Notes: a model not told the origin generated them from the sequence alone. A DNA stretch of 64,000 nt from Candidatus Yanofskybacteria bacterium RIFCSPHIGHO2_02_FULL_43_17 (GCA_001794435.1 MGJU01000014.1:27494-91493), one strand, 5' to 3'. Counted from the first letter of the stretch, positions 3,391 to 64,000 are shown. Translations and numbers: made by a program.

Positions 3391-3393
3391 AAA

Positions 3394-4149
3394 TTGTATA
3401 ATAGGGTTATGTCCCCCGTTTACGCGGCAACATTAGTAACCCTCGGCCTCGCGCCCAGTTTGGTGTGGCTTTCTTTTTACCTAAGAAGAGACTGCCATCC
3501 GGAACCAAAGCATCTCCTAACCAAAGCATTCTTAATGGGGATCATCATCTCCCCTCTCGCTATTTTGCTCCAGTTGGGATTTGCCGAGCTTAGAACCCTG
3601 ATCGGCTTAGAGATTTTCAGCCAGGGCACGCCCACGTTTTTTCTGTGGTCTTCGTTTGTGGAAGAATTTCTGAAATTTTTTGCCATTTATTTGGTGATTT
3701 TAAGGAGTCCGGAATTCGATGAACCGGTTGACGGGATGATATATATGATAACTGCCGCTCTAGGATTCGCCGCCATAGAGAACATACTGGTAATGTTAAA
3801 CCTCATTCCAAACGGCGCCGGTACCGCCCTCAATACGCTGGCCCTCCGATTCATAGGAGCAACACTTCTTCATGCGCTGGCTTCGGGGCTTATAGGTTAT
3901 TTCCTGGCTATGTCCTGGTTCTTTCAGGAACACAAAAAGAAATTGATAGTGTTCGGACTCGCCATCGCGACGCTTTTCCACGCGGCATTCAATATGCTTA
4001 TCGCTTTCGCGCAGGAATCAGCCAATCCCGTCGTCGGTCTGGTCTACACCACCTTCCTGTTAATAATTCTGGCCTTTTTAGTTTCCGTATTATTTGATAA
4101 AATAAAAGAGAGGCACATACATTCACAATCTCTAAATCCTAATTTCTAA
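3394..4149 (+). CDS. PrsW-like intramembrane metalloprotease (CAAX-protease-like)
   Basis: polytopic membrane protein with EEFLKF, FAAIEN and H motifs typical of the PrsW family. Confidence 0.6.
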   Translation: MYNRVMSPVYAATLVTLGLAPSLVWLSFYLRRDCHPEPKHLLTKAFLMGIIISPLAILLQLGFAELRTLIGLEIFSQGTPTFFLWSSFVEEFLKFFAIYLVILRSPEFDEPVDGMIYMITAALGFAAIENILVMLNLIPNGAGTALNTLALRFIGATLLHALASGLIGYFLAMSWFFQEHKKKLIVFGLAIATLFHAAFNMLIAFAQESANPVVGLVYTTFLLIILAFLVSVLFDKIKERHIHSQSLNPNF

Positions 4150-5976: not shown

Positions 5977-6348
5977 TTAGGCGAAGAAGGATCGGGTAAT
6001 AAGTCCCGCCAATGTCTGCAGTATCACGCCGACACCCAGCACTACCGCCGCTCCGATCACACCGTTCCATATGGTCGATTGGGCCGATTTGACCTTTTCG
6101 TCGTCGCCTCTGGCTGCCATATACATAACTCCTCCCCAAATAATGAATATAACGGCGAGAATAACTGAAACAATTATCAAAAATTGCGCTATTCTTCTTA
6201 TCAATTCCTCAATCTCAAGTAGGGTTATTGCTGAGCCGGTGGTTGGAGGCGTCGGAGTTGGCAAGGTTCCCGCCAATACCAAAACAGGCATCAAAACCGC
6301 TATTATTGCCAACGCGACTAATGTTGTTCTGCTAATATTTTTTTTCAT
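5977..6348 (-). CDS. T4SS pilin-like (VirB2/TrbC-like) small membrane protein, paralog 1
   Basis: N-terminal signal/TM, PT-rich spacer, C-terminal two-helix hairpin module IIWGGVMYMAARGDDEKVKSAQ...GAAVVLGVGVILQT shared with four neighbouring genes. Confidence 0.55.
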   Translation of the reverse strand: MKKNISRTTLVALAIIAVLMPVLVLAGTLPTPTPPTTGSAITLLEIEELIRRIAQFLIIVSVILAVIFIIWGGVMYMAARGDDEKVKSAQSTIWNGVIGAAVVLGVGVILQTLAGLITRSFFA

Positions 6349-6688
6349 TCCTCCACCTCCCTTCCGCGAAATTTGCCCATGAGGAGTTGCTGAAAGCAGC
6401 CGAATAGCTGCAAATTTCAGCGTCCCGCTCTATCTGGAATCGAAGCTGCAGAATAATACTAGTCAAGACGAAGTCGGTAATTTCACAAAGTCCTGACTGG
6501 CCTATTGCTTTGACTCTAGATAGAGCGGGGTTCCTCGTGTTTTTAACTTACCTTCATTATATCAAATACAAATAAATTTGGTAGTAACCCCGCACCAATC
6601 TTATCCGCTGACCGCCATTAAGAAATGAGGCGGGATTGGAGCGGGGTTAAGTGTTTGTCGCCAATCGCTTCGCTCTTGGACAAACAAC

Positions 6689-7099
6689 TTAATAAATACA
6701 CGTTCCTATAATCGGAATCCTTACGGTACAGAAGAAGTCAAGGGTTATTACAGAAGCTATTGTCTGGATAATTACTCCGACACCGAAAATAATCGCCGCA
6801 CCGATAATACCGCTTCTCAGTCGCGCTTGGGCGGCCGTTACTTTGGTCGCATCATCTCCAGCATACATATATGTCACCCCGCTCCAGATGATGAATATCA
6901 CTGTCAACAAAGCGCTAACTGTGATGAAAAATGTGCTGACCCGAAATATTACATAATCCAAAACATCTAGGGTGATCGGATTGCCCGGAAGCAGGCCCTG
7001 ACTGCCGGCTCTGGAACTTGGAACATTTACAACCATCGCCGGCAATACGTAAGCCAGAAAAATGAATAGTGACGAAACTGTCCGTAATATTTTTTTCAT
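6689..7099 (-). CDS. T4SS pilin-like small membrane protein, paralog 2
   Basis: same C-terminal module (IIWSGVTYMYAGDDATKVTAAQ...GAAIIFGVGVIIQT); start taken at MKKILRT. Confidence 0.55.
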   Translation of the reverse strand: MKKILRTVSSLFIFLAYVLPAMVVNVPSSRAGSQGLLPGNPITLDVLDYVIFRVSTFFITVSALLTVIFIIWSGVTYMYAGDDATKVTAAQARLRSGIIGAAIIFGVGVIIQTIASVITLDFFCTVRIPIIGTCIY

Positions 7100-7213
7100 C
7101 CCGTTAGAAATAGTACAAAGCACCAACTACCACCGTGCGGTGCCATATACTATTATTTATTGTTTTATTGATATTAATATGATTCATACCCATTAGGGTT
7201 ATTTCTAACGGGA

Positions 7214-7558
7214 TTATTCGCAGCTCAACGGTATAAATAAAGTATAATCGGCGCCTAAAGAATTGGCAACCGTAGCAATTATAGTATAAGTTCCGAGTAT
7301 AACTAAAACGCCGACCAATCCCCACAAAAACGACTTTCTGGCTTCGGTCACCTTTGTCGGATCACCTTGCGACATCAAAAATTTCACTCCAAAATAAACA
7401 ACCGCCACCACCACCAAAACAAGGGCGACCCTTGTGATCCAGCAGGCAAGACCGGTTATTATTCCTAAAACATCCTGAATAGTTAAATCTATGCCCGGCG
7501 CAGTTCCGGTCACGCCGTATAATAAAGATCGGGAATTTGGAATTTGGAATTTCATCAA
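7214..7558 (-). CDS. T4SS pilin-like small membrane protein, paralog 3
   Basis: same module (VVYFGVKFLMSQGDPTKVTEARK...VGVLVILGTYTIIAT). Confidence 0.55.
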   Translation of the reverse strand: MMKFQIPNSRSLLYGVTGTAPGIDLTIQDVLGIITGLACWITRVALVLVVVAVVYFGVKFLMSQGDPTKVTEARKSFLWGLVGVLVILGTYTIIATVANSLGADYTLFIPLSCE

Positions 7559-7591
7559 GATTTGTTTAGAAATTAGGACTTACAAATTTAC

Positions 7592-8563
7592 TTAGGGCGT
7601 TCCTCCTAAGTTCAATATGCTCTCTATTAAAGTAATGAATCCTTTGCCTATCATTATTATAGCCAACCCCACCACGGCGTACACTAGTATCTGTCTGGCT
7701 TGAGTCACTTTAGCCGTATCGCCTCGAGAGGTCAAAAACATCACTCCCGCATAAACAATCATAGCTACGGCAATGGGAATGGCGAGGTTAAACAACCAAG
7801 TAGCGATGACATTTATCAATTCTATCAGATTATCCGCCAATATGGGATTAGTGATAGAAAAATTAAACGACTGCGTTGCACCAGGAGCTCCACCGCCTCC
7901 GCCACCACCACCGCCTCCGCCGCCACCGCCACCTCCAGGTGCTTGTTGGCCACAAATATTAACATTGATTTGCAAAGGAGTTCTTCCGGCACAAGCCGGA
8001 ACATCAGATAAATTCTGAAAATTCCCCGGACTGCAAGCGTAAGTGCCGTCACCAGCCACACAGGCCCATATCAATTCTCCGGTACCTACCGTAATCCTGA
8101 CCCTGGGAGACTCGATAACATTTGTATTGTAAATATAACCGGTATTTCCACACTCAATCAGCATATAGACATTTGCATCGGGTCCGCTCCAAGCCGGAAG
8201 TCTTGTTGATTGCGTAACCGATGTCTGAATGCTTTGCCCAGTACGCTGAAAACTCTGCGTACCGCTTGTCAAAACTTCGTCTTCTTCATTATTAAGATCC
8301 AGTTTCAAGCTCCAAACATAAGAACTAATATTATTGTCCCCACAATGCCTAGAATATGCGGCCAAATCTATAACACCCCTCATTGAAAAAGTGACCGGAT
8401 TATTTGGATTAACCACAAGAACTGGATTTGCAGTAAAACTACTGACAGTAAATCCGTTGGCGCTGATACCGCCTACAGTTCCAGCAAGAGCTAGATAATC
8501 AGTCGAAGGATTGATTATAACCAGAATAAAAACATAGAAAAATATGGTAATTTTTCTGATCAT
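7592..8563 (-). CDS. secreted Cys-containing domain fused via (Gly)16 tether to a C-terminal T4SS pilin-like module, paralog 4
   Basis: signal peptide, ~200-aa Cys-rich extracellular domain, G16 run, then MIVYAGVMFLTSRGDTAKVTQARQ...module. Confidence 0.55.
   Translation of the reverse strand: MIRKITIFFYVFILVIINPSTDYLALAGTVGGISANGFTVSSFTANPVLVVNPNNPVTFSMRGVIDLAAYSRHCGDNNISSYVWSLKLDLNNEEDEVLTSGTQSFQRTGQSIQTSVTQSTRLPAWSGPDANVYMLIECGNTGYIYNTNVIESPRVRITVGTGELIWACVAGDGTYACSPGNFQNLSDVPACAGRTPLQINVNICGQQAPGGGGGGGGGGGGGGGGAPGATQSFNFSITNPILADNLIELINVIATWLFNLAIPIAVAMIVYAGVMFLTSRGDTAKVTQARQILVYAVVGLAIIMIGKGFITLIESILNLGGTP
7879..7929 (-). repeat. imperfect (CCN)16 triplet tract encoding poly-Gly
   Basis: ccaccgcctccgccaccaccaccgcctccgccgccaccgccacctcc on the plus strand. 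Confidence 0.8.
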
Positions 8564-8622
8564 TTGTGTAATATGTTTTCCTTAAGTATTGGTATTGATG
8601 ATTTTTTATATCTGGACATCTT

Positions 8623-9294
8623 TCAATTTATTATACCTTGATCGAATTTATCGGTAAATTCGTTTTCCTGAATATGTTTTGCTTTTTCCCGTCTTCGCCA
8701 CACATACCACCCGCCAGCCGCCAGTATGGCAATGACCAGAGTAATTAATATTACCACGTTCGCAGATAAAAACCCCTTGTCCAAATTCGGCGGCGGCACA
8801 GGCACAGCACTTCGACAGTCATTAGGGCAAGTTTGTTCACTTTCCCCTCTGTCAGAATTGCACGTCCCGTCATCGTTGCAAAAGGAACTCTCGCTCACAA
8901 AAACTGTCAGAAGTATTTTCCCTTGCGAGTCATAGAAAACCGCTTTCTGGCCGTCAGGCGCATATGGCGCTTTGACCGAAATTTTACCTTTCAAAAAGTC
9001 GGGGTTGCCTCGTTTGGGATCAAACAAAAACTCCGCCGCCACCCCGTTCTTAAGGTTAATTATTTCTCCCTTAAAAGGGAATTGGGTATTGAACGTCTCG
9101 GGAGTGAATTCTTCTGGAATAACATCGTACTTGAACTCAAAATCCCTATCGGCAAACAACTGGCCGTTATCATAATAGAGATGAAAATTGTAAACATAAC
9201 TATCTTCTATCCTAATATCAGCCCAAGCTGGAAGTAAAAAAACAAACACAGCCACTGATACGAAGAAAAATATTTTAGAAACTAAATTAAACAT
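8623..9294 (-). CDS. secreted protein with C-terminal membrane anchor, Cys-rich segment, unknown function
   Basis: signal peptide MFNLVSKIFFFVSVAVFVFLLPAWA, CNDDGTCNSDRGESEQTCPNDC motif, C-terminal TM plus RRREK. Confidence 0.5.
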   Translation of the reverse strand: MFNLVSKIFFFVSVAVFVFLLPAWADIRIEDSYVYNFHLYYDNGQLFADRDFEFKYDVIPEEFTPETFNTQFPFKGEIINLKNGVAAEFLFDPKRGNPDFLKGKISVKAPYAPDGQKAVFYDSQGKILLTVFVSESSFCNDDGTCNSDRGESEQTCPNDCRSAVPVPPPNLDKGFLSANVVILITLVIAILAAGGWYVWRRREKAKHIQENEFTDKFDQGIIN

Positions 9295-11084
9295 TAAAAT
9301 ATGTTGGCATAACAATACTCGACTCTTGGAGCATACCTCCTTGTAAAAGCATAACTCGTCGGTCGGTCGGCATTACAGATATTATGCGAGTTGTTATCCC
9401 AAAGACACTCCCACCTTCTTGTTTCTCTCCCCTGGCCTCCACACACATCGCACCGTCCTCCGTCTGAAGCCGCAGACGGCCCACAGTTAGCACTAACTGA
9501 ACACGCACCAGCTCCTCCATTATATCCCGCCGCCAACTGTCTTGCATCGCAACCACAAGGACCGGCAATAGAATTCCTCAAATAAGTTGCCGCTATGCAG
9601 GCCTGCTCTTCTATTGTATCGCATCGATTGAGCCAGGCAAAATCAATGGTTTCAGTCACACCACATTGACTCTTATACAACGTAGCTACGTCAGGTTTAA
9701 GTTGGAAAAATCCGGCTGACTCCCCGTCTTCAGCAATAATACTACACCTACCCGACGACTCGTTTGCCGCAATGGATTTTAATAATTTTACTGTATCAAT
9801 TCCGCCGCAAACATTTATATTACCCACTCCAGCAATTATGGCTGCACTGTGAGTATTCACGGCAGAGGCAGCACAATTGCCACCCGGGTTAACTGGTGAA
9901 CAACTTAATGTGTCTGGAGCACCCCCAAAAGTACATGTTGATCCGGTACACAAATTACTCGTATTCGTTTGACTTACCACAATGGTAAAGTTCCTCCTCG
10001 AACTTCTTGTAGTTGGAGGTTCTTCTGTAAGCAAGATTTGGAAAGTAATAGTACCGGCCGTAGTGGGTGTGCCGGAAATAACCCCGGTTGAAGAATTCAA
10101 GTTAAGACCGGCCGGCAATGAACCGGAATATACTGCCCAACGATATGGAGGAGTTCCTCCGGTTCCGGTAATAGTTGTGGAGTAAGCTTGGCCGACTGTG
10201 GCGCCCGGAAGAGCGGCTGGAGTGGTGATAGATAAGGTACCCGTGCCGGTTCCCGCTATGACAATGGTAAAGTCTCTTGTTGCCGATTGCTGGGGCGTTG
10301 AGTTGTCGGTGACTCTGACGGTGAAAGTCGCCGTGCCAACAGCAGTAGGAGTTCCGGAGACAACACCAGAGGCAGTATTAAAACTTAAACCAGCAGGTGG
10401 AGAACCAGTCGTTGTCCAAGCATAAGGAGTTGTACCGCCAGAAACTTGAATTGTCTGAGAGTACTGCTGGCCCACCGTGCCGCCCGGAAGGTCGACGGTA
10501 ACAATGGATAACACTGCTCCCGGTGGTGGAATGGTCGATGTCGGAGTAGGAGTCGGTATTGGAGTGACAGGTGGCGGTGTGGCGGGTACTCTCTCAACAC
10601 AAGTGAACTGCCACCAATTGTCAGCATTGTCGTAGTTGGAACCGACGCTTTTTATCAAAGTGTTGGTTATCATCCACGCCGAAAGTATAATTATAATTCC
10701 GTAGAAAGTGTTTGTAAAAATTGTCCTTCCTTGCGCAACTAAGCCAGGATTGGCTCCGCCAAGCAGGATTAAAAAACCGGCCCATACAAAAAGTAAGACG
10801 GCCAGCACAGGCATCAAGGCGCCAACAGTAAAGTCGATAGTGTTTTTTAAAAGCCTAAAAAGATCGCAACGGCCACAGGATTGATAATAAGAATCATCGA
10901 GCACAACTTTGCCATCAGCTATTTCAGCGGGAGTGGGCCTTTCAAGGCCACAAGGCACCAACGGCCAGCCGGGAAGATCAACAGATTGCTGTCCTCCCAA
11001 GGCAAAGCCGGGGAAAAACAGTAAAATAACTAGCGAGATAAGTAGTAAATTCTTTCTTATCATTTTACTCTTTGATTTTTGCAT
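9294..11084 (-). CDS. chimeric surface protein: N-terminal pilin-like module, Pro/Thr linker, He_PIG-type Ig-like repeats, C-terminal lytic-transglycosylase-like (VirB1-like) domain
   Basis: N-terminus carries the LFVWAGFLILLGGANPGLVAQGR module; three repeats of LPxGxxGxxYSxxI..GGTxPYxW; C-terminus has ANESSG..GFFQL and AAGYNGG motifs reminiscent of the SLT catalytic region. Confidence 0.5.
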   Translation of the reverse strand: MQKSKSKMIRKNLLLISLVILLFFPGFALGGQQSVDLPGWPLVPCGLERPTPAEIADGKVVLDDSYYQSCGRCDLFRLLKNTIDFTVGALMPVLAVLLFVWAGFLILLGGANPGLVAQGRTIFTNTFYGIIIILSAWMITNTLIKSVGSNYDNADNWWQFTCVERVPATPPPVTPIPTPTPTSTIPPPGAVLSIVTVDLPGGTVGQQYSQTIQVSGGTTPYAWTTTGSPPAGLSFNTASGVVSGTPTAVGTATFTVRVTDNSTPQQSATRDFTIVIAGTGTGTLSITTPAALPGATVGQAYSTTITGTGGTPPYRWAVYSGSLPAGLNLNSSTGVISGTPTTAGTITFQILLTEEPPTTRSSRRNFTIVVSQTNTSNLCTGSTCTFGGAPDTLSCSPVNPGGNCAASAVNTHSAAIIAGVGNINVCGGIDTVKLLKSIAANESSGRCSIIAEDGESAGFFQLKPDVATLYKSQCGVTETIDFAWLNRCDTIEEQACIAATYLRNSIAGPCGCDARQLAAGYNGGAGACSVSANCGPSAASDGGRCDVCGGQGRETRRWECLWDNNSHNICNADRPTSYAFTRRYAPRVEYCYANIF

Positions 11085-21132: not shown

Positions 21133-22599
21133 GTGAAGACCACGAGGAGTTGGTACCGCCAGCTTGGCGAGTACCGGACGAACAAAGCTGGAAAGAAAAT
21201 TAGAGGCGTCATTGGCACCACGATGCATTTGTTCCGCATTTGCGGAAAGAATATCATCATTGAATGCGGCATCGGCTTTGACAGGAACGGTGAGTTTCAG
21301 GCCCAGTACGTACCCGATGGCAACTGGCTTATCGGAACTCATATTGATTTGATCATCCTCACCCACAAGCACCTGGATCATTCGGGGGCAATTCCCCGTC
21401 TTGTGTGGCATCACCCGGAAGCGCTGGTGTTGATGTCGGCCAAATGTTTTGACGGCACAGTGATAGCCGTTGAAGATTCTTTGAAGATCTGGCGCAACGA
21501 GGCGAATAACGCCGAGCGGAATGGTTTGCCCGTTCCGGAGCCGATCTTCACAGAAGAAATGGCTGAAGCGTTTTTCAATAACCCCAACTTGAGGGTGTTC
21601 AATCCTCCTTACTGGCTTGATCCGCAGGAAGACCTTCGCGGTCAGTGGCCGGGATGGGAAATTGGATTCTACGGTGCCGGTCACGATACCGGCGCAGTAT
21701 CTGTCTACATGATCCGACCGGATGGTAAGTATCTCTATCTGACCGGCGATATTGCCAGCCATGACGGAGAGAACGCCCGCGGTGTTCTTCTGCCGCCTGA
21801 CGACTTCCTTGGCGACTTCTTTGACCGTCCCGGAACGATGGTCACCGAAGCGACCAACGGCGGCCGCCGGATGGAAAAGCCGCGCAGTCAACTGGATGAA
21901 GAGCTCAACCGATTTATCAAGTCGGTTGATGCAAAAGGGGGCATTCTCCTGTGCGCCGAATTCGCGGGCACCAAAAGCGGCAACATGATGGTCAAGCTGA
22001 ATAATCTTGGCTACAAAGTTGTCGTTGACGGACTTGCCCGCCGGCATATCCGGGTTGAGGTTCCGGATGTTGACCAGAGGATCAGGGACGGCCGAGTCGT
22101 GTTCATTGAAGAACGCGACCAAGAGCTCGCGTGGAAACAGCGGGCCGACTACGCCGCCGGCGTTCACGGCTTTGTGTCCATAATCGCCGCGTCGGGTTCT
22201 ATGGATCAGGGCTTTGCCGCATCGGCATACGGGCCCGTGATCCTTGAGGGTGAGAAAAACGCTGTTGTCTTCACAAGCCATATCTTTGATGACTCCACCA
22301 CGCAACGACTGCTCAATATCAAGCGTGGTCGGACGATTAAGATGAAAAAGTTCGTCAACGGACGGCTCGAGCCGATTCGAGTCAATGTCCGTTGTGAAGT
22401 TAGACATTTCGGCTACTCGTCGCATGATTATCAGGACGGGTTAGTCGAGCGAGTCCGGCTCGCAAGACCGGAGGAGACGCTCATTGTCCACCACTGCCCG
22501 GGCAAGGCAACGTTTGACGCCTTTGCCGAACGAGTGAATTCCCTGCCCCCTCCCCCGAAAACAATCTGGGGACTCAATGGCAGAAAGATATTTATTTAA
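21133..22599 (+). CDS. MBL-fold hydrolase, beta-CASP-like putative nuclease (GC-rich island 2)
   Basis: THKHLDHSG HxHxDH motif, later GAGHDTGAV and YSSHD motifs; AGGAGG RBS then GTG start. Confidence 0.6.
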   Translation: MKTTRSWYRQLGEYRTNKAGKKIRGVIGTTMHLFRICGKNIIIECGIGFDRNGEFQAQYVPDGNWLIGTHIDLIILTHKHLDHSGAIPRLVWHHPEALVLMSAKCFDGTVIAVEDSLKIWRNEANNAERNGLPVPEPIFTEEMAEAFFNNPNLRVFNPPYWLDPQEDLRGQWPGWEIGFYGAGHDTGAVSVYMIRPDGKYLYLTGDIASHDGENARGVLLPPDDFLGDFFDRPGTMVTEATNGGRRMEKPRSQLDEELNRFIKSVDAKGGILLCAEFAGTKSGNMMVKLNNLGYKVVVDGLARRHIRVEVPDVDQRIRDGRVVFIEERDQELAWKQRADYAAGVHGFVSIIAASGSMDQGFAASAYGPVILEGEKNAVVFTSHIFDDSTTQRLLNIKRGRTIKMKKFVNGRLEPIRVNVRCEVRHFGYSSHDYQDGLVERVRLARPEETLIVHHCPGKATFDAFAERVNSLPPPPKTIWGLNGRKIFI

Positions 22600-43140: not shown

Positions 43141-44814
43141 ATGCCTGAAGACAAATCAACAAAAAAAGAGGAGGAGCTGGAGAAAAAACTCTTAGATATG
43201 AGAGGGCGGGCGGAAGAAGACAAATATAAAGCTCTTGCCCAACAGTTGAACCTTCCCTACTCCAATCTTATATCAATTCCCATCGATACTGATGCGCTAT
43301 CTTTATTAAGCGAAGAAGAAGCTCGCTCAGCCAGTATCGCCCCAATATTCCAAAAGGACTCAAAAATCATTGTAGTAACAGTGGACCCTACCAACCCCGT
43401 GACTCAAAAGGTTATTTCCAGACTGAAAGAGAACAGCGAGGTTGATGTGATTTTGACAAATCCTCGATCCCTTCAAAACATTCTGAAAAGGTACCGGGAC
43501 ATAAAAAAGGCGGATGTTTTTGAGGTCGGAGCAATAGAAATACGAGAGAAAGAGTTAGACCGGCTTGAAGGTGAGATAAAAAACATCTCAGATATAAAAG
43601 AGCGAATGAAAAAAATGTCCGCCACAAGCCTGTTAGAAATGATCGTGGCTGGAGCCTTAAAAACAGAGGCATCGGATATACACCTGGAACCCGAATCGGA
43701 CAAGATCCGGCTGAGATACCGACTCGACGGTCTTTTGCATGACATAGCCTCTTTAGATGAACCGTCTTATGAGAAGGTGTTGAATAGAATAAAGGTTTTG
43801 TCGAAAATCAAACTTAATATTCACAACACCCCCCAAGATGGACGATTTACCATACGTCTGAAAACCGTATCTATAGAGGTGAGGGTGTCGGTCTTACCAA
43901 GCGAATTCGGCGAAACCGTCGTAATACGGCTTCTTGATCCAAGAACAATTAAAAGAAGCCTCGAAGAGCTGGGGATGAGAGACGACTTGCTAAATAAGGT
44001 TAAGGAAGTCCTGAAAAAACCGACGGGAGCCATCTTTACGACCGGTCCAACCGGTTCCGGTAAAACAACGATGCTATATGCTTTCGTCAGCTACCTTAAC
44101 TCACCCGAAACCAAAATAGTAACAATAGAGGATCCGATAGAATACCACATCGAGGGTATATCCCAGACCCAAGTTGACACCCATAAAGGATATACTTTTG
44201 CCAACGGCTTAAGGGCCATCGTTAGACAAGACCCTGACATTATCCTTGTAGGAGAGATAAGGGATGCCGAAACGGCCAATATCGCTTTACAATCCGCCCT
44301 TACGGGGCACTTAGTACTGTCAACTATCCACACAAATGACGCCGCCGGCACCATTCCCCGCTTGATAGATCTCGACATAAGGCCTCAAATAATAGCCCCT
44401 GCCATAAATGTGGCGATGGCCCAGCGCCTAGTCAGAAAATTGTGTCCCAACTGCAAGAAAATGGAAAAGATCGAGACAGAAGACTTGAAAAAAATAAAAG
44501 CACTATTAGAACCATTGTCGAAATTTCGAAATATCGATATGTCAAAATATCCGAAGCTAGACGCCAGTTTGGAGATAGGCACCCCTGGAAAATGCACAGA
44601 ATGCAATGATTCGGGCTACAAAGGGCGTATCGGTGTCTTTGAAGCGTTTGAGATGTCGCGGGAAATGGAGAAATTAATATTGAGATCGCCGGCAATGTCG
44701 GAGGTAAGGGATCTAGCTATAACCGAGGGCATGGTAACAATGCTGCAAGATGCGTACATCAAGCTGATCAACGGAGTAACATCGATGGAAGAAATAGACA
44801 GAGTGTTAGGATAG
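43141..44814 (+). CDS. pilB: type IV pilus/type II secretion assembly ATPase (PilB/GspE family)
   Basis: GPTGSGKTT Walker A, IEDPIEY, ILVGEIRD, tetra-Cys zinc motif CPNC...CTEC. Confidence 0.9.
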   Translation: MPEDKSTKKEEELEKKLLDMRGRAEEDKYKALAQQLNLPYSNLISIPIDTDALSLLSEEEARSASIAPIFQKDSKIIVVTVDPTNPVTQKVISRLKENSEVDVILTNPRSLQNILKRYRDIKKADVFEVGAIEIREKELDRLEGEIKNISDIKERMKKMSATSLLEMIVAGALKTEASDIHLEPESDKIRLRYRLDGLLHDIASLDEPSYEKVLNRIKVLSKIKLNIHNTPQDGRFTIRLKTVSIEVRVSVLPSEFGETVVIRLLDPRTIKRSLEELGMRDDLLNKVKEVLKKPTGAIFTTGPTGSGKTTMLYAFVSYLNSPETKIVTIEDPIEYHIEGISQTQVDTHKGYTFANGLRAIVRQDPDIILVGEIRDAETANIALQSALTGHLVLSTIHTNDAAGTIPRLIDLDIRPQIIAPAINVAMAQRLVRKLCPNCKKMEKIETEDLKKIKALLEPLSKFRNIDMSKYPKLDASLEIGTPGKCTECNDSGYKGRIGVFEAFEMSREMEKLILRSPAMSEVRDLAITEGMVTMLQDAYIKLINGVTSMEEIDRVLG

Positions 44815-56935: not shown

Positions 56936-56944
56936 AGATCGCTC

Positions 56945-57147
56945 ACCCCAGCTACTCTTTTCTCACGAACTCCTCATAGAGCAGTTACGATTCGCTCCTA
57001 ATTTTTCTGACCGCTCGGGGTCACCCCTGTCAGGCCATGCGGTCCCGCCAAGGCGGGACCGTTCCTGACATCCCCGACTCGGTTTCTCAGAAAAATGTCG
57101 TCGCTCATCTGCAACTGCTAACTACTCGTCATCAAGTGAGAAAAGAG
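56945..57147. ncRNA. structured element copy 2 (paralog of 18038-18243)
   Basis: shared core with compensatory stem changes; 12-bp closing stem CTCTTTTCTCAC/GTGAGAAAAGAG. Confidence 0.45.
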
Positions 57148-57451
57148 AAGCAAGGGTTTCGCTCCTTGTCATTTAAATCTGAGCAACACCTATCGCAATT
57201 TTATCACTTGACGAGCCCGCCAAAGTTTTCCAATGGAAAATTTAGGCGGGCGAGTCAAGAAAACTTATGAGAGTGAGGCGGATTTTATCTGAAATCATAG
57301 GTCGAACGCCCAGCCCCTCTTTTCAGAGAAAAGAGGGGCTGGGAGGCAAGAGAGGGTTACCTGTGATTTTAGAACATAAACCCTGCTCTATCTTGAGTAA
57401 GTTTTTGAAGGTGAGGAATCGTGATAAAATTGCGATAGAAGTTGCGAGCGA

Positions 57452-58516
57452 CTATTTAATTTTCAGAGCATACAGCTTGTCGTCTATCTCATTGAGTATG
57501 TAAATAACATCTCCTAGCGGGCCAAGAGCCATCTCTTTAGTAAGCAGATTAATGCTTGGTACCGAAACCAGTATTTTAGAACCATCGGCCACGCTTATTC
57601 TGTAAAATTCGTCCTTGAGTTGGGTTTGGTTTTTAACTCCGCAAATAACCTCATCCCTATTTAACCAGGCGCACTTTGAAGCGTTAGAATTTACATCCAG
57701 AGAAACGATTGCGTCATTGTTAGCAATATCTATGTAAAACAGGCGTTCAGAACCAGTGCCATTTTTGGCAGAAAATAATATTTTTTCGCCATCGGGCGAC
57801 CATTTTACGCCAAGATCGTATTGATAGGACAGTATTTTATTGAGGGCGCCTTCTTCTTTTAGAACAAGCAGATCGCCATACCCGTCTTTATCGTAGGATA
57901 CTATGGATATAAAATCATCCCTTGGCCAGCTGACTGTTACGGCGCCGAGCCGTGTTTTAAGGGCACGCTTAATGATTTTCCCGGCTTTGGATATGAGCAA
58001 CTCTCCCACCCCGTCGTTAACAAGCAGATACGTCGCTTGATCGCCGTGAGGAGAGAAAGCAGCCGACCTTAAATTACCCGCCAAGTTTGATTTTTCGCCT
58101 GTTTTTAAATTTAAATAAACCGTTTTTCTGTTGTTCCCAGCGTCATAAAAAGAGTAGATAACAGAGTCGCCTGTCGGCGATAGCAGTACTTCCGATATAT
58201 CGGTTCGACCCAAAGAGGCCAGAACTTTTTCTCTGATATTGGCCGCATCTATTTCAATAATATCACCATTCTTGTCTACGGCTATTATATTTTCAGAACC
58301 AAGGCTGACAAACGAAACAAGCCTTCTGGAGCTAAGGGGCAGTGTTTTTGGAATTGTGGTTTCAAGCAACTCCGCCTTAGTGTTGCTATTGAATCTTTGT
58401 ATCAATGAATTGCTTTGGGTGCCGAGCCCGCCTCCTAGAGTTAAAAGACGGCCGGATAAAAAGGCAATAGCTCCTAATGTTATGAATATTGAAACCAATA
58501 ATATTTTTTTCTCCAT
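57452..58516 (-). CDS. membrane-anchored TolB-like beta-propeller protein
   Basis: N-terminal TM; repeated hydrophobic-Asp/Gly blades (LLSPTGDSVIYSFYD, ILFSAKNGTGSERLFYIDI). Confidence 0.45.
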   Translation of the reverse strand: MEKKILLVSIFITLGAIAFLSGRLLTLGGGLGTQSNSLIQRFNSNTKAELLETTIPKTLPLSSRRLVSFVSLGSENIIAVDKNGDIIEIDAANIREKVLASLGRTDISEVLLSPTGDSVIYSFYDAGNNRKTVYLNLKTGEKSNLAGNLRSAAFSPHGDQATYLLVNDGVGELLISKAGKIIKRALKTRLGAVTVSWPRDDFISIVSYDKDGYGDLLVLKEEGALNKILSYQYDLGVKWSPDGEKILFSAKNGTGSERLFYIDIANNDAIVSLDVNSNASKCAWLNRDEVICGVKNQTQLKDEFYRISVADGSKILVSVPSINLLTKEMALGPLGDVIYILNEIDDKLYALKIK

Positions 58517-58517
58517 A

Positions 58518-59210
58518 TTATGCGATTCCCGTTTCTCCGGTTGCTTCCAAAACCGAATCCGACGCTTCCCTTGCGTTTTTATAGCTCTCTTTTTCTGCTC
58601 TATAGCTTAACCAAATTCCAACCAGCATCCAGGGAACAAGCGCCAGAAAAGGCACCAGATTTAAAGTACCGGCCGCCACGGATCTCAATATTGGGCTTTT
58701 GGCGCTTTTGGCTACTCCTCTTAAAGCCACTCTCGCTCGCCTTACGGTTCTCAAATGAAGTTTACGGTATAGCTGTTTTGCTCCCGGAATTTTGCGGCTT
58801 AATCGGGCCACTCTTAAAATGTTTCTTTCAGCATTGGCTATGCGCGCCACTAAGGCGTCAATTTTTTTCTGGATATTTTCAGCATACTCATCTGCTCTTT
58901 TTTGTTTTGTATTGGTGAACCAGAAAATAAGGATTATAACTGCCGAAACGGCGAAAGAAATTATCCTCCCAACGATTGCGCCCAGACCGGTTAGGTCAAT
59001 AAAATCAACGATATCAACTATCACTGCCAATGATGCGAGGATTGAGTATTTGAATAACGAGGGGCGATGATATGTTTGTCCTTGGTTATATAATTCCACT
59101 GCTTCAGCTTGCGCGGCATAAAGCTCTTGTTCTGCGGCAAGCTCGTCGGCATACTGCTCCTCTTCGGCTACCTCTTCGTCAGTATTTCTAGTTGTTTGTT
59201 CTTCGGGCAT
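58518..59210 (-). CDS. membrane protein of T4SS-like module, unknown role
   Basis: acidic N-terminus, 2-3 TM helices, basic central segment. Confidence 0.4.
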   Translation of the reverse strand: MPEEQTTRNTDEEVAEEEQYADELAAEQELYAAQAEAVELYNQGQTYHRPSLFKYSILASLAVIVDIVDFIDLTGLGAIVGRIISFAVSAVIILIFWFTNTKQKRADEYAENIQKKIDALVARIANAERNILRVARLSRKIPGAKQLYRKLHLRTVRRARVALRGVAKSAKSPILRSVAAGTLNLVPFLALVPWMLVGIWLSYRAEKESYKNAREASDSVLEATGETGIA

Positions 59211-59260
59211 TAGATAAAAATTTACGAAATCCTCCCCACCTTAAACTTGTTGAGAAGCTT

Positions 59261-61009
59261 TTAGCTTCTCAACTTTGCCCACTCTTCCTTGGCTTTTTCT
59301 ATTTCAAGTATCTGTCTCGGATCGGAGGTTATTATCTGGTCTTCGGCATAAGATGCCAGAACTCTGATGCCGATGTGGTTTTGGCCGACAAAGAAAAGTC
59401 CGAAACCGACCCTTGCTTCAAGCAGATAATATTTCTCTCCGTCAGTAAGGTTAAATGTTTTCTGGACTATATCTATCGCCGCAGGCGACTGCTTCATCAG
59501 AATTTGCATAGACGAGTTGGTTACGATGCTTTTGCCTTTGTCGGTGGAAAGCATGTCGTTGATGTCCTGCGATATCGTGGTCAGGCCGAGATAATATTTT
59601 CTGGCTCGTTTTGCAATGTTGGACAGAAAGTCCGCGCCGATATCGTATTTCATAAGCCACCACGCCTCATCGACTATCAAAAGCCGCTTCTTCTGGACTC
59701 TTCTTACGGATGTCCATATGTGATTGAGTATCGAGTACATTGCAATCGGCCTTAGCTCTTCTTCCATGTCTCTGATACTGAATACAACAAGGTTATTGTC
59801 CAATAAAACATTGGTCGGCATGTTTAAAAATCCAGCAAAAGTACCTTCAGTATATTTTTTAAGCCGTATCGCCATTGATTCGGCTCCGGTAAGCCCTTCA
59901 AGTATGTTTTGGAGGTCGGATAAGACCGGAGGCGTGGCATTGGTGAAATTGGAATCCGGGGTTATGTCTTTTATCGCGTATGTTTGTATCAGCGCCTCGT
60001 CGAGTATTGAATTTTCTTCCGGTGTCAGTTCCCCGAGCATCAGCCGCAGAAGACCAGTAAGGTCTAAAATATGCGATTTGAACACATCAGCCGGCGACTC
60101 GTCTTGTTTTGGAACAGGAAGGTCCAGGGGGTTTATATGTTGGTCGGAAGTGATGGATATTTTAATGGGTGAGCCGCCAACTGTCTCGGCTAGGTATTTG
60201 TACTCGTCCTCGGGGTCGATGATCAATACTTGGGTACCGAATATCAAACTTCTCAAGATTTCCAGCTTTACCGTGTAACTCTTCCCCCCACCTGATTTTC
60301 CAAAAACAACGGCATTGTAGTTTTCTAGTTGGAATCTGTCGAACAAAACCAAGGAGTTGTTGTGAGTGTTGATGCCATAGAGTATACCGTCATGAGAGGT
60401 CAGGTCAAAAGAAACAAACGGGAAAATCGACGATAAGGGCTCAGTATTGAGAGAAGTATGAATATTGAGACGGTCATCGTTTATGGGCAGTGTAGAGATG
60501 AATCCCTCCAGCATTCTGAATGTTGCCACTTTTGGAAAGACGAGCTGGTATTCCAACATGCCTCGTAATTTGTTTTCCGTCTCATCCAGTTCTTTTAAGC
60601 TGTTTTCGTAGATTGTTATGTACACGCCTAGCTCGAAAAATTTATCTGTTCCTTGCTGAAGCCGGTCTCGCAAGTTCTCTATGTCCTGAATGGCTGTCTC
60701 CAGAATGGGGTCTCTGACTTTTCCCTTAGCCGCTTCTTCCATGGTTTGGGACTCAAGGCGGCTAAGCTGGTCGCGAAGCTGTTTTAAAACCGTTGTCGTG
60801 TTTTTGGGCAGTACGAATATCGAAATATCGAAAACTCTGTCCAGGTTTATAACTGGAGAAAACCACTTTGTCTGCAAATACCTTGGATATGTCGCTAGAA
60901 AAATAGTTCGGGCAAACTTATCCCCCACCTGAATGTAAGAAGGAGCGATATTAAATGCTCCCGGTGCAAGATATTCTGACATTTTATTTTTCTGTTGCTC
61001 AGCAGCCAT
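59261..61009 (-). CDS. VirB4/TrbE/CagE-family conjugative-type ATPase (C-terminal ~3/4 of a split gene)
   Basis: Walker A VVFGKSGGGKSYTV, Walker B LLIVDEAWWLM, family-typical N-terminal IAPSYIQVGDKFARTIFLATYP. Confidence 0.8.
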   Translation of the reverse strand: MAAEQQKNKMSEYLAPGAFNIAPSYIQVGDKFARTIFLATYPRYLQTKWFSPVINLDRVFDISIFVLPKNTTTVLKQLRDQLSRLESQTMEEAAKGKVRDPILETAIQDIENLRDRLQQGTDKFFELGVYITIYENSLKELDETENKLRGMLEYQLVFPKVATFRMLEGFISTLPINDDRLNIHTSLNTEPLSSIFPFVSFDLTSHDGILYGINTHNNSLVLFDRFQLENYNAVVFGKSGGGKSYTVKLEILRSLIFGTQVLIIDPEDEYKYLAETVGGSPIKISITSDQHINPLDLPVPKQDESPADVFKSHILDLTGLLRLMLGELTPEENSILDEALIQTYAIKDITPDSNFTNATPPVLSDLQNILEGLTGAESMAIRLKKYTEGTFAGFLNMPTNVLLDNNLVVFSIRDMEEELRPIAMYSILNHIWTSVRRVQKKRLLIVDEAWWLMKYDIGADFLSNIAKRARKYYLGLTTISQDINDMLSTDKGKSIVTNSSMQILMKQSPAAIDIVQKTFNLTDGEKYYLLEARVGFGLFFVGQNHIGIRVLASYAEDQIITSDPRQILEIEKAKEEWAKLRS

Positions 61010-61028
61010 TGTTGTAAGCTAAAGGTTT

Positions 61029-61646
61029 CTAGTCGTCCTTGGTTGGATTATAGAGCTGATAATACAAGTTCTTAAGTTCCTCGTCCTCAAGCTGGGTTAT
61101 CTGAAGGCCTAATCCGGCAAGGCCGCCGTAAACCAGCTCGGCTCTTTGGAGCAACTGGTTTTTGTAAGAGTTGAATTGTTCGCCCGTCAGTTCTTTGGGT
61201 ATGGTCTGGGGACTCAATATTCCCTTTAAGCTTCGGATCAACCCCGTGGCTTCCGGTTTTTCGTAGATGTAAAAAGGAACCGCGATATAGAACCTCTTAG
61301 ACATTATGTTGGACAAACTCGAGAGTTCTTTTATAAATCTTGAATATTCTGAGGCTTGGATCTTCATAAGTTCGTTGGTTGTCGACTCGACAATCTCGCC
61401 CACGATCTTAAGATAGCCGCTTATGTCCAGTTCTCTGGAGCTGACAATGATTTGAAGAGGAAAATCAACGGAATTGAGAAAATTTTGAAAACCCTGAAGT
61501 ATCGCTACTTGTTCATCGGCGGATCTTAACTCAAAATTTATAGCCGAAATCTCTAAAACCATCCTGAGAGAGCCATTCTTAAGAACAACCACCCCTTCAC
61601 GGATATCAGAAATAGGGACTAAATTTTCGGTGGATTGGTTGGGCAT
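61029..61646 (-). CDS. VirB4 N-terminal-domain-like protein (upstream part of split VirB4)
   Basis: PISDIREGVVVLKNGSLRMVLEISAINFELRSADEQVAILQGFQNFLN resembles the VirB4/TcpF N-domain; stops 19 nt before the ATPase ORF. Confidence 0.55.
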   Translation of the reverse strand: MPNQSTENLVPISDIREGVVVLKNGSLRMVLEISAINFELRSADEQVAILQGFQNFLNSVDFPLQIIVSSRELDISGYLKIVGEIVESTTNELMKIQASEYSRFIKELSSLSNIMSKRFYIAVPFYIYEKPEATGLIRSLKGILSPQTIPKELTGEQFNSYKNQLLQRAELVYGGLAGLGLQITQLEDEELKNLYYQLYNPTKDD

Positions 61647-61750
61647 GTTTCAAATTAAAAAGTAAAATTGAAAATCTAAAAACGACAACTAAAAAGTTAA
61701 AACTGGAGAAGTTGTCTTAGTTTTTAATTTTACACTGCCGTTTTTCATTT

Positions 61751-62059
61751 TTAGATTCTAGTTTTTAAATTATTATCCTCGTCTTTTCTGAATATGTATC
61801 GTTTAGGGTTTAATAAATATGAAAGTAGATACGCGATGTAATTGATTAACGGCATCCCGTCTATTTTCAGGAAAGCAAAAGCCAGAAATATCGCCGCTAT
61901 CGGTACTCCGGCGGCGAAGAATATAAATCCACCCTGCGTAGTCGTAAACAGAAGAAATAGTATCGACACTCCGCCGGCTACCCACAGAAACTGCTTCAAA
62001 GTAAGCGGGCCGACCAATTTCGTCTCTGTTTCTATGAATTGTGGTAATTGAAACCTCAT
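61751..62059 (-). CDS. VirB3/PrgI-like small two-TM protein
   Basis: 102 aa, two adjacent TM helices, located directly upstream of VirB4 as in Gram-positive-type T4SS. Confidence 0.45.
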   Translation of the reverse strand: MRFQLPQFIETETKLVGPLTLKQFLWVAGGVSILFLLFTTTQGGFIFFAAGVPIAAIFLAFAFLKIDGMPLINYIAYLLSYLLNPKRYIFRKDEDNNLKTRI

Positions 62060-62532
62060 TGATTTTGTTTACGTAGATCTATCACATTGCTTTGCTCTGC
62101 GTTTGTGTTCTGTGATGACTGCTGGCTTTGGTTGGATCTGTTTTGCGCTATTCTGTCTTTAAATTTTTCTCTTTGCATATTTTTAATATCCTCTATCGCC
62201 AGAGCGAATAGTTCGCTGACTATTTTGTTGGCAATTTGATTTGCGATGCTCGCCTCAACTCCCAGCTTTGAAGATATTAATGCAGGGAAGTCGCTCAAGA
62301 AAGCGTCGGCAAGAAGGACGTCTCTTACTATCCGCGATAAGTCGGAAGATTGATTCTGGTCCAAGCCAACTTTTTTAGAAAGAAATTCTAAGTAGTAATC
62401 AGTTGTAGCAGAAGTCATAACATCTTTCACCTTAAGTGGTAATTTTATAAATTTATTCGCGAAAATATCCCAGTCCTTTTTGACTAGTAGTAATTCCTCT
62501 AGGTCCACTTGGGAAGGACTATATATATTCAT
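62056..62532 (-). CDS. hypothetical soluble protein of T4SS-like module
   Basis: 158 aa, Gln/Ser-rich tail, no motif. Confidence 0.4.
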   Translation of the reverse strand: MNIYSPSQVDLEELLLVKKDWDIFANKFIKLPLKVKDVMTSATTDYYLEFLSKKVGLDQNQSSDLSRIVRDVLLADAFLSDFPALISSKLGVEASIANQIANKIVSELFALAIEDIKNMQREKFKDRIAQNRSNQSQQSSQNTNAEQSNVIDLRKQNQ

Positions 62533-62544
62533 CTTAAGGGGGTT

Positions 62545-64000
62545 TTAAGGGATTGTTAAAGCAAAAATCTGTGCCAAACTTCTTGTGTCCGTTGCATTAT
62601 CTTGCAGTCCTTTCTTGAACCTCTCGCCACCACCAGGCTTGGGCATAATCGGAGGACCCCCTGGAGTTGTGGGCGGTCCACCGGGGATAGAAGGTTCAGA
62701 TGTTTGAAGTGCATTTATCTTTGCTTGAACCGCATTGACAAAATCCGGGTTTCCCCAACCGCCGTCATAGCCTATTTCTGCCAAAGCATCAGCTTTCATT
62801 CTCGTTACTCTAAAATTAAGAACCGCTCCCCTGGTTGCTAGCGGAGTTCCAGCGGCATCTCGCACTACTCCAAGAGCAGCTTTGGCGTCGACGGTAGCCA
62901 TGAAGTTCTTTTTCTCAGCTTTTTCTAGGAATTTGATTTTTTCAGCATCATTAGCATACAAGTTGGCAGCGGCCGCAAGCGCCGGCGCGGTCATCATGCT
63001 CGGGTCACCTTTTTCAGCCATTACTTCAGCTGACTTTCTTTTTACCTCATTATCAGGAGCATTGTTGTACCACGTTTGTCTATCTGTTTGAGATAGATTT
63101 TCGAAGTCAACCTTTGTGCCAAAATCAACCGCTTCTTTAGATCCAGCTCTGTACATACTATAAGTGTCAAACATCTCAGCGCCAGTCAAAGCACCTCTTT
63201 CTGCTAGAATTTCTCTAACAGCCAGTTTTTCTTGGTCGCTTCCTGTAGTCATGAGACCGCGCAGTGTCGTATTATCAGTAATGCGTCTGGCAGCTTTTTT
63301 AAGAAAGTTTGCTTTTTCTCCTGGTAAGGCATATAACGACTGAGCTCTTTGAATAGAATCGACGGTATCAAACTCGCCCTTCTCAGCCATAACTTCGGCA
63401 ACTTTTCTCTTAGCTTCTACGTCTGTCAGGTCTTTGTACCAATCCCCTCTATCCGTGCTGGAAAGTTTACCGTAGTCAATGCTTTTAGCGAACTGTCTGC
63501 CGGCCAGCGTGTTGTTGCCGCCGTACAGTTCGAATGTCTTTCTGTAATCATCGCTGGTTAATAATCCTCTATCCTTCATCACTTCTCTGGCAGCCAACTG
63601 GTTTCTAAGCGGACCTTTGTCCATCAACTTTCTAAGTTCTGCTGGGTCGGTAATTCTTTCAAATCTCTTCTTGATTTCCCCGATATCTTTAGCTTGTTGT
63701 TCTTCCAAAAATCCGACCTTGCCGCCGGTAATACGGCCAAGGGCATCTCTCATATATCCTGTTTGTCGCGCTATTCTGGCCTCTTCTTTTTCCCCAAGTT
63801 CGTCAAACCTTCCTTTCACCGCTCTGCCGGCAGCTGTCCACCCTATCCTATTTGCCACCCTATCTCTTCCCCATTTTGCCACTTGCACTACTCCCGTTCC
63901 GGAAAACGTTCCGGCACTCATTGCCACTTTTGTGCCGCCTATCATAAAGATGGCCACAAGAAAATAGTAAAATATCAGTCCAAAAGTAAAATCGGATTGC
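62545..64000 (-). CDS. membrane-anchored protein with two ~100-aa internal repeats and Pro/Gly-rich C-terminus (5' end runs past the window edge)
   Basis: tandem repeats ...LTSDDYRKTFELYGG..VEAKRKVAEVMAEKGEFD / ...LTGAEMFDTYSMYRAG..NEVKRKSAEVMAEKGDPS; frame stays open to position 64000. Confidence 0.45.
   Translation of the reverse strand, partial: QSDFTFGLIFYYFLVAIFMIGGTKVAMSAGTFSGTGVVQVAKWGRDRVANRIGWTAAGRAVKGRFDELGEKEEARIARQTGYMRDALGRITGGKVGFLEEQQAKDIGEIKKRFERITDPAELRKLMDKGPLRNQLAAREVMKDRGLLTSDDYRKTFELYGGNNTLAGRQFAKSIDYGKLSSTDRGDWYKDLTDVEAKRKVAEVMAEKGEFDTVDSIQRAQSLYALPGEKANFLKKAARRITDNTTLRGLMTTGSDQEKLAVREILAERGALTGAEMFDTYSMYRAGSKEAVDFGTKVDFENLSQTDRQTWYNNAPDNEVKRKSAEVMAEKGDPSMMTAPALAAAANLYANDAEKIKFLEKAEKKNFMATVDAKAALGVVRDAAGTPLATRGAVLNFRVTRMKADALAEIGYDGGWGNPDFVNAVQAKINALQTSEPSIPGGPPTTPGGPPIMPKPGGGERFKKGLQDNATDTRSLAQIFALTIP

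Follow-up and report, generated by a model that had tools for sequence, protein, structure and literature searches.

A probable Patescibacterial type IV secretion system encoded beside the replication genes of a Candidatus Yanofskybacteria genome

What kind of machine is encoded by a set of genes that resemble parts of a type IV secretion system (T4SS) and lie close to dnaA in a Patescibacterial chromosome? The question is raised by one end, positions 57,452 to 64,000, of a 64,000-nucleotide stretch (the window) from Candidatus Yanofskybacteria bacterium RIFCSPHIGHO2_02_FULL_43_17 (GCA_001794435.1, MGJU01000014.1:27494-91493), where an earlier note on this DNA had described seven co-oriented minus-strand genes as a minimal, possibly non-conjugative T4SS-like apparatus. 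Calling of open reading frames (ORFs) placed all seven on the minus strand, at the positions that had been given for them (Table 1). Our reading, to which we would attach a probability of roughly 0.85 for identity and general mechanism, is that they belong to a chromosomal, vertically inherited T4SS of the Patescibacteria (the candidate phyla radiation, CPR), derived from the MPF_FATA class and here found in Candidatus Yanofskybacteria of the class Paceibacteria. The region is an instance of the Patescibacterial T4SS already known from work published in 2023-2025, and the new details are incremental.

The identification turns on the ATPase. The 582-residue protein clears the 325-bit cutoff of the NCBIfam model for CD1110-family VirB4-like conjugal transfer ATPases (NF045971), aligning with profile positions 181-733 of 752, and is without the N-terminal ~200 residues present in single-chain VirB4s. 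It has a Walker A motif GKSGGGKS at residues 237-244 and a Walker B motif VDEAW at residues 446-450, and Pfam matches it to P-loop_TraG, AAA_10 and DUF87. With hhalign the family profile matches, at 99.9% probability in each case, residues 224-773 of the 796-residue PrgJ of pCF10 and residues 36-624 of the 672-residue TrsE of pSK41; by sequence it is an ATPase of the MPF_FATA/CD1110 type. An identical protein is found on 22 public contigs, including MGJG01000020.1 (assembly GCA_001794145.1), and among the best 120 homologues listed those of Yanofskybacteria and Paceibacteria are 77-93% identical, all entries with a named source being Yanofskybacteria, Paceibacteria or Patescibacteria.

Upstream of virB4 lies a 205-residue ORF that, together with the ATPase, had been taken for a split VirB4. 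The division into an N-domain ORF and an ATPase ORF stands, but not the idea of a disrupted gene. The matches of the 205-residue protein to VirB4 models are confined to their N-terminal parts (VirB4_plasma positions 101-233, E 9.4e-13; CD1110 positions 11-129), it is also recognised by the NCBIfam TrsD/TraD family model NF041427, and its precomputed Pfam assignment is TraC-like PF26593. A family alignment built from ORFs of 195-250 residues, leaving out a TrsD::VirB4 fusion ORF, was matched to TrsD of pSK41 by hhalign with a probability of 73-78% (E 3e-5 over 179 columns). The single-sequence hhalign comparison with the N-terminus of PrgJ was not significant, and the relation of TrsD to the VirB4 N-domain therefore rests on the NCBIfam profile matches and the literature. 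The two genes are in different frames and separated by 19 nucleotides. In a sample of 80 related genome loci, searched with profiles over six-frame ORFs, they occur as separate adjacent ORFs in 74, with TrsD directly upstream of virB4. The same architecture is found in pSK41, where trsC (VirB3-like), trsD and trsE are followed by a gene for a membrane protein, and since the 74 loci and the TrsD/TrsE pair share it, the two-gene state would seem to be old and conserved, not a disruption. Judged on sequence the core gene order, VirB3-like, TrsD, VirB4, is that of pSK41/pGO1.

Variants of this pair were observed in three of the loci. In L010 (5145-7289) a single 715-residue ORF joins TrsD residues 1-131 to VirB4 residues 32-582, which fits the two acting as one unit but could be an assembly artefact. 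In L080 (7613-11059) and L075 (391-3822) the VirB4 ORF is ~1,145 residues long and carries a ~550-residue intein placed exactly within Walker A (GKSGGGK|S...VHN|SYT); that of L080 matches Pfam Intein_splicing and LAGLIDADG_3.

The 102-residue protein, earlier called a VirB3/PrgI-like protein with two transmembrane (TM) segments, does have two hydrophobic segments and exceeds the 27-bit cutoff of Pfam PrgI, with a weaker match to TcpE; its gene was found in 68 loci. The ORF at the window's edge, which had been described as a repeat-containing anchored protein, with no VirB6 recognised in the window, proves to be the missing component itself. The repeats are there, the part inside the window comprising a hydrophilic domain that carries two ~90-residue repeats, together with the last TM helix and a proline-rich tail, but the frame is open through base 63999 and the N-terminal polytopic domain is encoded beyond the edge. 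An extension past base 64000 in search of VirB6 had been proposed, and it yielded this protein and two further genes. In full, as seen in locus L002, the contig read on beyond base 64000, the protein has 793 residues: a signal peptide is followed by a polytopic domain, and the C-terminal 457 residues make up a hydrophilic domain. It is recognised by its predicted fold as an extended VirB6-like protein. Proteins called "extended VirB6" typically carry a large hydrophilic domain towards the C-terminus (PMC12857230), and the protein shares this feature with R388 TrwI and Legionella DotA, although sequence identity with these is just 9-13%. No relative was detected for the 457-residue C-terminal repeat domain, and the family profile gave nothing meaningful against PDB sequences. 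The cluster has, then, the VirB6-like polytopic channel protein that is expected of a Patescibacterial T4SS.

Pilins that could supply a filament were anticipated by the earlier note in an array at 6-11 kilobases (kb) of the window, and five genes within 5977-11084 do carry the T4SS_pilin domain (PF18895). In the four at 5977..8563 it is found with E values of 1.2e-9 to 2.2e-4, three of them also matching TrbC/VirB2 (PF04956), and in the product of the fourth the domain is C-terminal. The fifth, a fusion of 596 residues, has a He_PIG score of 99 bits and a T4SS_pilin score of 33.2 bits; its match to the SLT lytic transglycosylase domain reaches 17.2 bits against a cutoff of 21.3, and it may be regarded as a candidate VirB1-like cell-wall opener. 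As far as domain matches can tell, the genes of the array are for VirB2-type T4SS pilins and not for pilins of type IV pili. With nine clustered genes, as set out below, and five pilin-domain genes the apparatus is hardly minimal. The array also contains, at 8623-9315, a gene for a 230-residue protein with hydrophobic N- and C-terminal segments and a cysteine-rich middle that matched no family. Elsewhere in the window, at 43141-44814, there is a PilB-type type IV pilus assembly ATPase with T2SSE and MshEN domains, so the genome encodes both a type IV pilus and a T4SS.

Table 1. Genes of the secretion cluster inside the window and of the pilin array, with their predicted products
Feature	Position	Strand	Remark
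354-aa membrane-anchored beta-propeller	57452..58516	-	last gene of cluster
230-aa protein, 3 hydrophobic segments	58518..59210	-	matches no family
582-aa VirB4 ATPase, MPF_FATA/CD1110 type	59261..61009	-	NF045971, 355.7 bits
205-aa TrsD-like protein	61029..61646	-	NF041427, E 8.4e-6
102-aa PrgI/VirB3-like protein	61751..62059	-	PF12666, 40 bits
158-aa soluble protein	62056..62532	-	matches no family
C-terminal ~484 residues of 793-aa extended VirB6-like protein	62545..64000	-	remainder past window edge
VirB2-type T4SS pilin	5977-6348	-	Pfam PF18895
VirB2-type T4SS pilin	6689-7126	-	Pfam PF18895
VirB2-type T4SS pilin	7214-7558	-	Pfam PF18895
VirB2-type T4SS pilin	7592-8563	-	Pfam PF18895
596-aa pilin-Ig fusion	9294..11084	-	pilin domain, two He_PIG, weak SLT

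The seven genes of the window form the downstream part of an operon-like cluster of nine that extends beyond base 64000, in the order TSP3-493-VirB6-158-PrgI-TrsD-VirB4-230-propeller. The genes are tightly packed, the stop codon of the 158-residue gene overlapping the prgI start by 4 nucleotides and the remaining gaps in the window being 1-104 nucleotides; in the related loci the median intergenic gap is <=13 nucleotides. Downstream of the propeller gene follow jag, yidC, yidD, rnpA, rpmH, dnaA and dnaN, and past the edge, in locus L002, rsmA/ksgA and uvrD lie upstream of the TSP3 and 493-residue genes. Adjacency to the origin, as had been suggested, is upheld by jag, yidC, yidD, rnpA, dnaA and dnaN at 51.4-56.9 kb of the window. 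It is argued from these marker genes because the count of DnaA boxes of the E. coli consensus, 22 where 14.2 would be expected, amounts to no convincing enrichment.

The nearest relatives of the locus are in Candidatus Yanofskybacteria, class Paceibacteria, and conservation among the 80 loci is considerable. The complete nine-gene order is found in ~45, most of the others being cut by contig ends, and the flanks UvrD-RsmA and Jag-YidC-YidD-RnpA-DnaA-DnaN are kept in ~55, so that the same nine genes stand between the same housekeeping genes in ~55 species whose VirB4 proteins are 66-92% identical to that of the window. In the 33 genomes with all nine genes the median identity to the proteins of the window is 72% for VirB4, 55% for TrsD and 53% for PrgI, and just 27-35% for the other six. 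This pattern would be expected of a conserved motor with fast-evolving envelope parts, and it suggests strong purifying selection on VirB4 as compared with the latter. The distant loci L074, L076 and L079 retain VirB6-(158)-PrgI-TrsD-VirB4 without the 230-residue and propeller genes. The GC (guanine plus cytosine) content of the cluster is that of its surroundings, and because the flanks are conserved and there is no such anomaly the locus is taken to be chromosomal and vertically inherited and not a mobile element, that is to say neither on a plasmid nor in an integrated element.

Systems of this kind have recently been described from other Patescibacteria. Wang et al. (2023) found that an unusual Gram-positive-like T4SS is essential if Southlakia epibionticum is to grow as an epibiont; its pilin genes are essential and it has no coupling protein or relaxase (PMC10633639). 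In the dataset of Quiñonero-Coronel et al. (2025), which includes Yanofskybacteria, 2,417 of 3,035 Patescibacteria genomes have VirB4, with the Patescibacterial VirB4 clade monophyletic, nested in MPF_FATA and divided into class-specific, vertically inherited clades (PMC12102498). In their survey TrsD is the commonest partner, PrgI/VirB3 is frequent and VirB6 often escapes detection by sequence, arrays of VirB2-like pilins are common and relaxases almost absent, and the Paceibacteria locus adjoins dnaA, dnaN, rnpA, ksgA and rpmH (PMC12102498). A 2025 review counts the Patescibacterial systems as the most recent additions to the T4SS superfamily (PMC12857230). The present locus agrees with these in its MPF_FATA VirB4, immediately preceded by TrsD and accompanied by PrgI/VirB3, its divergent VirB6, its VirB2-like pilin arrays, the want of a relaxase or coupling protein in cis and its location by dnaA, dnaN, rnpA and ksgA. 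It differs from that of Saccharimonadia, represented by L079, where the pilins are beside VirB6, in that the pilin genes are here ~50 kb from virB4, and from that of Southlakia, where peptidase and lysozyme homologues come immediately after virB4. Furthermore five conserved genes (TSP3, 493, 158, 230 and propeller) are unnamed in both PMC12102498 and PMC10633639; neither paper uses the words "propeller" or "TolB", nor does PMC12102498 use "WD40".

Likeness to the conjugation systems of Gram-positive plasmids is confined to the core. The locus shares with pSK41/pGO1, a subclass of MPF_FATA, the order of VirB3-like protein, TrsD, VirB4 lacking its N-domain and membrane protein, although the 230-residue protein that takes the last place here has no similarity to TrsF of pSK41. 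That plasmid also has a relaxase, the coupling protein TrsK, the CHAP hydrolase TrsG, a topoisomerase and SSB, none of which were found here. With the Prg/Pcf system of pCF10 it has in common a PrgI family protein, a CD1110-family VirB4 and a VirB6-like polytopic protein upstream, yet PrgJ is a single chain of 796 residues, unlike the separate TrsD and VirB4, and no equivalents of PrgK, PrgL, PrgB, PcfC or PcfG were found. The profiles of all families in the cluster other than VirB6 and VirB4 were compared by hhalign with the pCF10 and pSK41 proteins, and only TrsD and, weakly, TrsC were matched. Neither this comparison nor phmmer over the window and a 10-kb flank gave similarity to PrgK, PrgL or TrsG.

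The earlier view that relaxase and coupling protein are missing held up when the search was widened. The queries PcfC, TrsK, PcfG, Nes and MobV gave no phmmer match in the window and flank, 74 kb in all, so that within this distance the mating-pair genes are accompanied by no relaxase and VirD4-type coupling protein, and among 20 large ORFs scanned with Pfam only housekeeping functions turned up, with no relaxase, coupling protein or integrase. Given that the vicinity yields no relaxase or coupling protein and that the locus has a fixed place beside dnaA, the system is probably not for conjugation, as had been proposed.

How the parts may work together can be outlined by analogy. The extended VirB6 and PrgI/VirB3 would form a membrane channel, on which VirB4 and its TrsD partner would dock and supply energy from adenosine triphosphate. 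A further task of VirB4 is probably the extraction of the VirB2-type pilins, whose genes lie 50 kb away; the pilins would be polymerised into a pilus or conduit, an assembly that the SLT-like domain of the pilin-Ig fusion may aid, and the anchored TSP3, 493-residue and propeller proteins could be clade-specific envelope or host-contact parts. Macromolecules would most likely pass between epibiont and host cell, either as effectors exported or as host material imported; proposals in the literature include effector delivery and the import of nutrients or nucleic acids (PMC11665869; bioRxiv 10.64898/2026.06.21.733656).

Several points weigh against this reading. No function has been demonstrated for a Patescibacterial T4SS, the role being described as "completely unknown" (PMC11665869), and the placing of VirB4 in its clade is taken from the published tree. 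The pilin genes are 50 kb away from virB4, the SLT match of the pilin-Ig fusion is under the Pfam cutoff and a VirB8-like protein was not found. The search for relaxase and coupling protein covered four or five reference proteins and 74 kb, and the 2025 survey reports VirD4-like genes elsewhere in most such genomes (PMC12102498). The accessory genes are tied to the T4SS only through operon-like packing and predicted envelope location, and as unrelated housekeeping genes are equally syntenic, synteny alone proves no membership.

The alternative that deserves most attention is that the cluster builds nothing but a VirB2-type adhesive pilus or attachment organelle, through which no substrate is translocated. 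It would account for the coupling protein and relaxase not found nearby, and it has in its favour the multiple divergent VirB2-type pilins and the pilin-Ig fusion, which suggest surface display, the extracellular TSP3, propeller and cysteine-rich proteins, which resemble adhesion modules, and the tubular structures reported at the parasite-host interface of a cultivated relative (bioRxiv 10.64898/2026.06.21.733656). We nevertheless think it unlikely, given that a VirB6-type channel protein and VirB4 are kept and highly conserved and that type IV pili, for which there is a PilB-type ATPase in the window, already serve adhesion and motility; besides, pilus and translocation roles can coexist. 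Much less credible is a conjugative mobile element, or integrative and conjugative element (ICE), inserted near the origin: whilst VirB4, TrsD, PrgI and VirB6 have homologues among the proteins of Gram-positive conjugation systems, and the NCBI name of the orthologues is "conjugal transfer protein TraC", an element of this sort is hard to reconcile with the same nine genes and housekeeping flanks in ~55 species, with searches of the window and its 10-kb flank in which neither relaxase, coupling protein nor integrase was found, with the unremarkable GC content and with the class-specific vertical clades of the published tree.

Two further explanations can be given almost no weight. That the cluster is a decaying, non-functional remnant with VirB4 split by mutation could be read from the spread of ATPase homology over two ORFs in different frames, but the two-ORF state is that of 74 of ~80 loci and of the functional TrsD/TrsE of pSK41, no protein of the cluster is better conserved than VirB4, whose Walker motifs are intact, and homologous genes are essential in Southlakia. 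Just as improbable is that the ATPase is a DNA pump of the HerA/FtsK type with no part in secretion, its neighbours being coincidental. Pfam DUF87, the HerA central domain, does match the ATPase (E 1.5e-8), and there are weak partial matches to the archaeal DNA-import ATPases CedB and CedD; the DUF87 match is however only a 64-residue P-loop stretch, CedB reaches 41.6 bits against a cutoff of 700, and the best whole-protein match is the CD1110 VirB4 equivalog, over its cutoff, with PrgI, TrsD and VirB6 as neighbours. The earlier note had named an ATPase of an FtsK/HerA clade as grounds for giving up its reading, and on these matches that test comes out negative.

Within the Patescibacterial T4SS there remain the five accessory genes, those for the TSP3-repeat, cysteine-rich 493-residue, 158-residue, 230-residue and seven-bladed propeller proteins, for which no T4SS homologue is known from our comparisons: the families of all five, and that of a 131-residue protein mentioned below, gave nothing by hhalign against all the pCF10 Prg/Pcf and pSK41 Trs proteins. 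The first two are encoded beyond base 64000, co-oriented with the rest and preceding the VirB6 gene, the TSP3 protein being a membrane-anchored protein of 304 residues with bacterial TSP3 calcium-binding repeats and the 493-residue protein secreted. The 158-, 230- and 354-residue proteins have no Pfam or NCBIfam family above threshold, the 354-residue one having weak propeller matches only; scanning every member of the 158- and 493-residue families with Pfam gave no consistent family, and the profiles of these two and of the 230-residue family found no recognisable relative among PDB sequences, the last giving only coiled-coil noise.

The 158-residue protein is soluble as described earlier, with zero hydrophobic segments, and is predicted to be cytoplasmic. 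An alignment of 52 orthologues reveals a helical core, a proline/glutamine-rich linker of variable length, to which the range in size of the family from ~130 to 417 residues is due, and an invariant C-terminal N-[IV]-[IV]-D-L-R-[NK] (here NIIDLRN), a peptide that looks like a short docking motif. The gene was found in 53-54 loci, the distant L074 and L076 among them, and the family accounts for 281 clusters in a library of 1.84 billion proteins. From its acidic N-terminus the 230-residue protein runs through a TM hairpin and a basic helical stretch to a third TM segment (hydrophobic stretches at residues ~50-102 and 174-203); its gene follows VirB4 in 61 loci and is absent from L074 and L076.

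The 354-residue protein had been called TolB-like, of which the beta-propeller can be kept and TolB orthology cannot. A TM helix at the N-terminus is joined by a ~30-residue linker of low confidence to a seven-bladed propeller that is modelled confidently (predicted local distance difference test, pLDDT, 84.9), and the protein is in the model a PD40/S9-peptidase-type propeller on a membrane anchor. A TolB orthologue would have an N-terminal alpha/beta domain and a six-bladed propeller scoring above the TIGR02800 cutoff, which is not what is seen, and TolB was rejected.

It is tempting, if at present rather doubtful, to regard the five as genuine clade-specific subunits that replace the absent VirB8, VirB1 and adhesin parts of Gram-positive systems, in which case the three extracytoplasmic proteins might form the wall-spanning, host-contacting end and the 158-residue protein might act as a cytoplasmic adaptor or substrate, docking on VirB4/TrsD by way of NIIDLRN. 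Were this so, it would provide the first handle on the cargo of an essential Patescibacterial T4SS.

Few envelope machines are known to be indispensable to these ultra-small bacteria for living as epibionts, and the Patescibacterial T4SS is among them. The locus adds no new kind of system; it is a clean and well-conserved Paceibacteria example with a complete parts list, and the gains are a VirB6 recognised by fold where sequence often fails, a clarified relation of TrsD to VirB4 and the definition of five accessory genes. Predictions of interactions, or experiments with the few relatives in culture, could draw on such a list.

A few minor observations concern the surroundings of the cluster. 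Between the convergent jag and propeller genes is a gene-free stretch of 516 nucleotides (56936-57451) with several GC-rich perfect hairpins, which are probably bidirectional terminators; when checked for a conserved RNA its conservation was limited to two close relatives, with no Rfam match, and the Rfam scan of the window returned transfer RNAs only. On the other side, L002 carries at 2008-2364, between uvrD and rsmA, a gene for a 23S ribosomal RNA intervening-sequence protein (PF05635) that is present in only two related loci, and at 3146-3541, just upstream of the cluster, one for a cysteine-rich secreted protein of 131 residues. The latter was considered as a member of the system and rejected, since Pfam gives no T4SS pilin and it is found in only 9 of the 80 loci. 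Finally, GC content rises to 0.573 in the segment 20001-22000 of the window, as against ~0.44 elsewhere; the ORFs there include one of metallo-beta-lactamase/RMMBL (RNase J-like) type at 21133-22599, and several others have no family.

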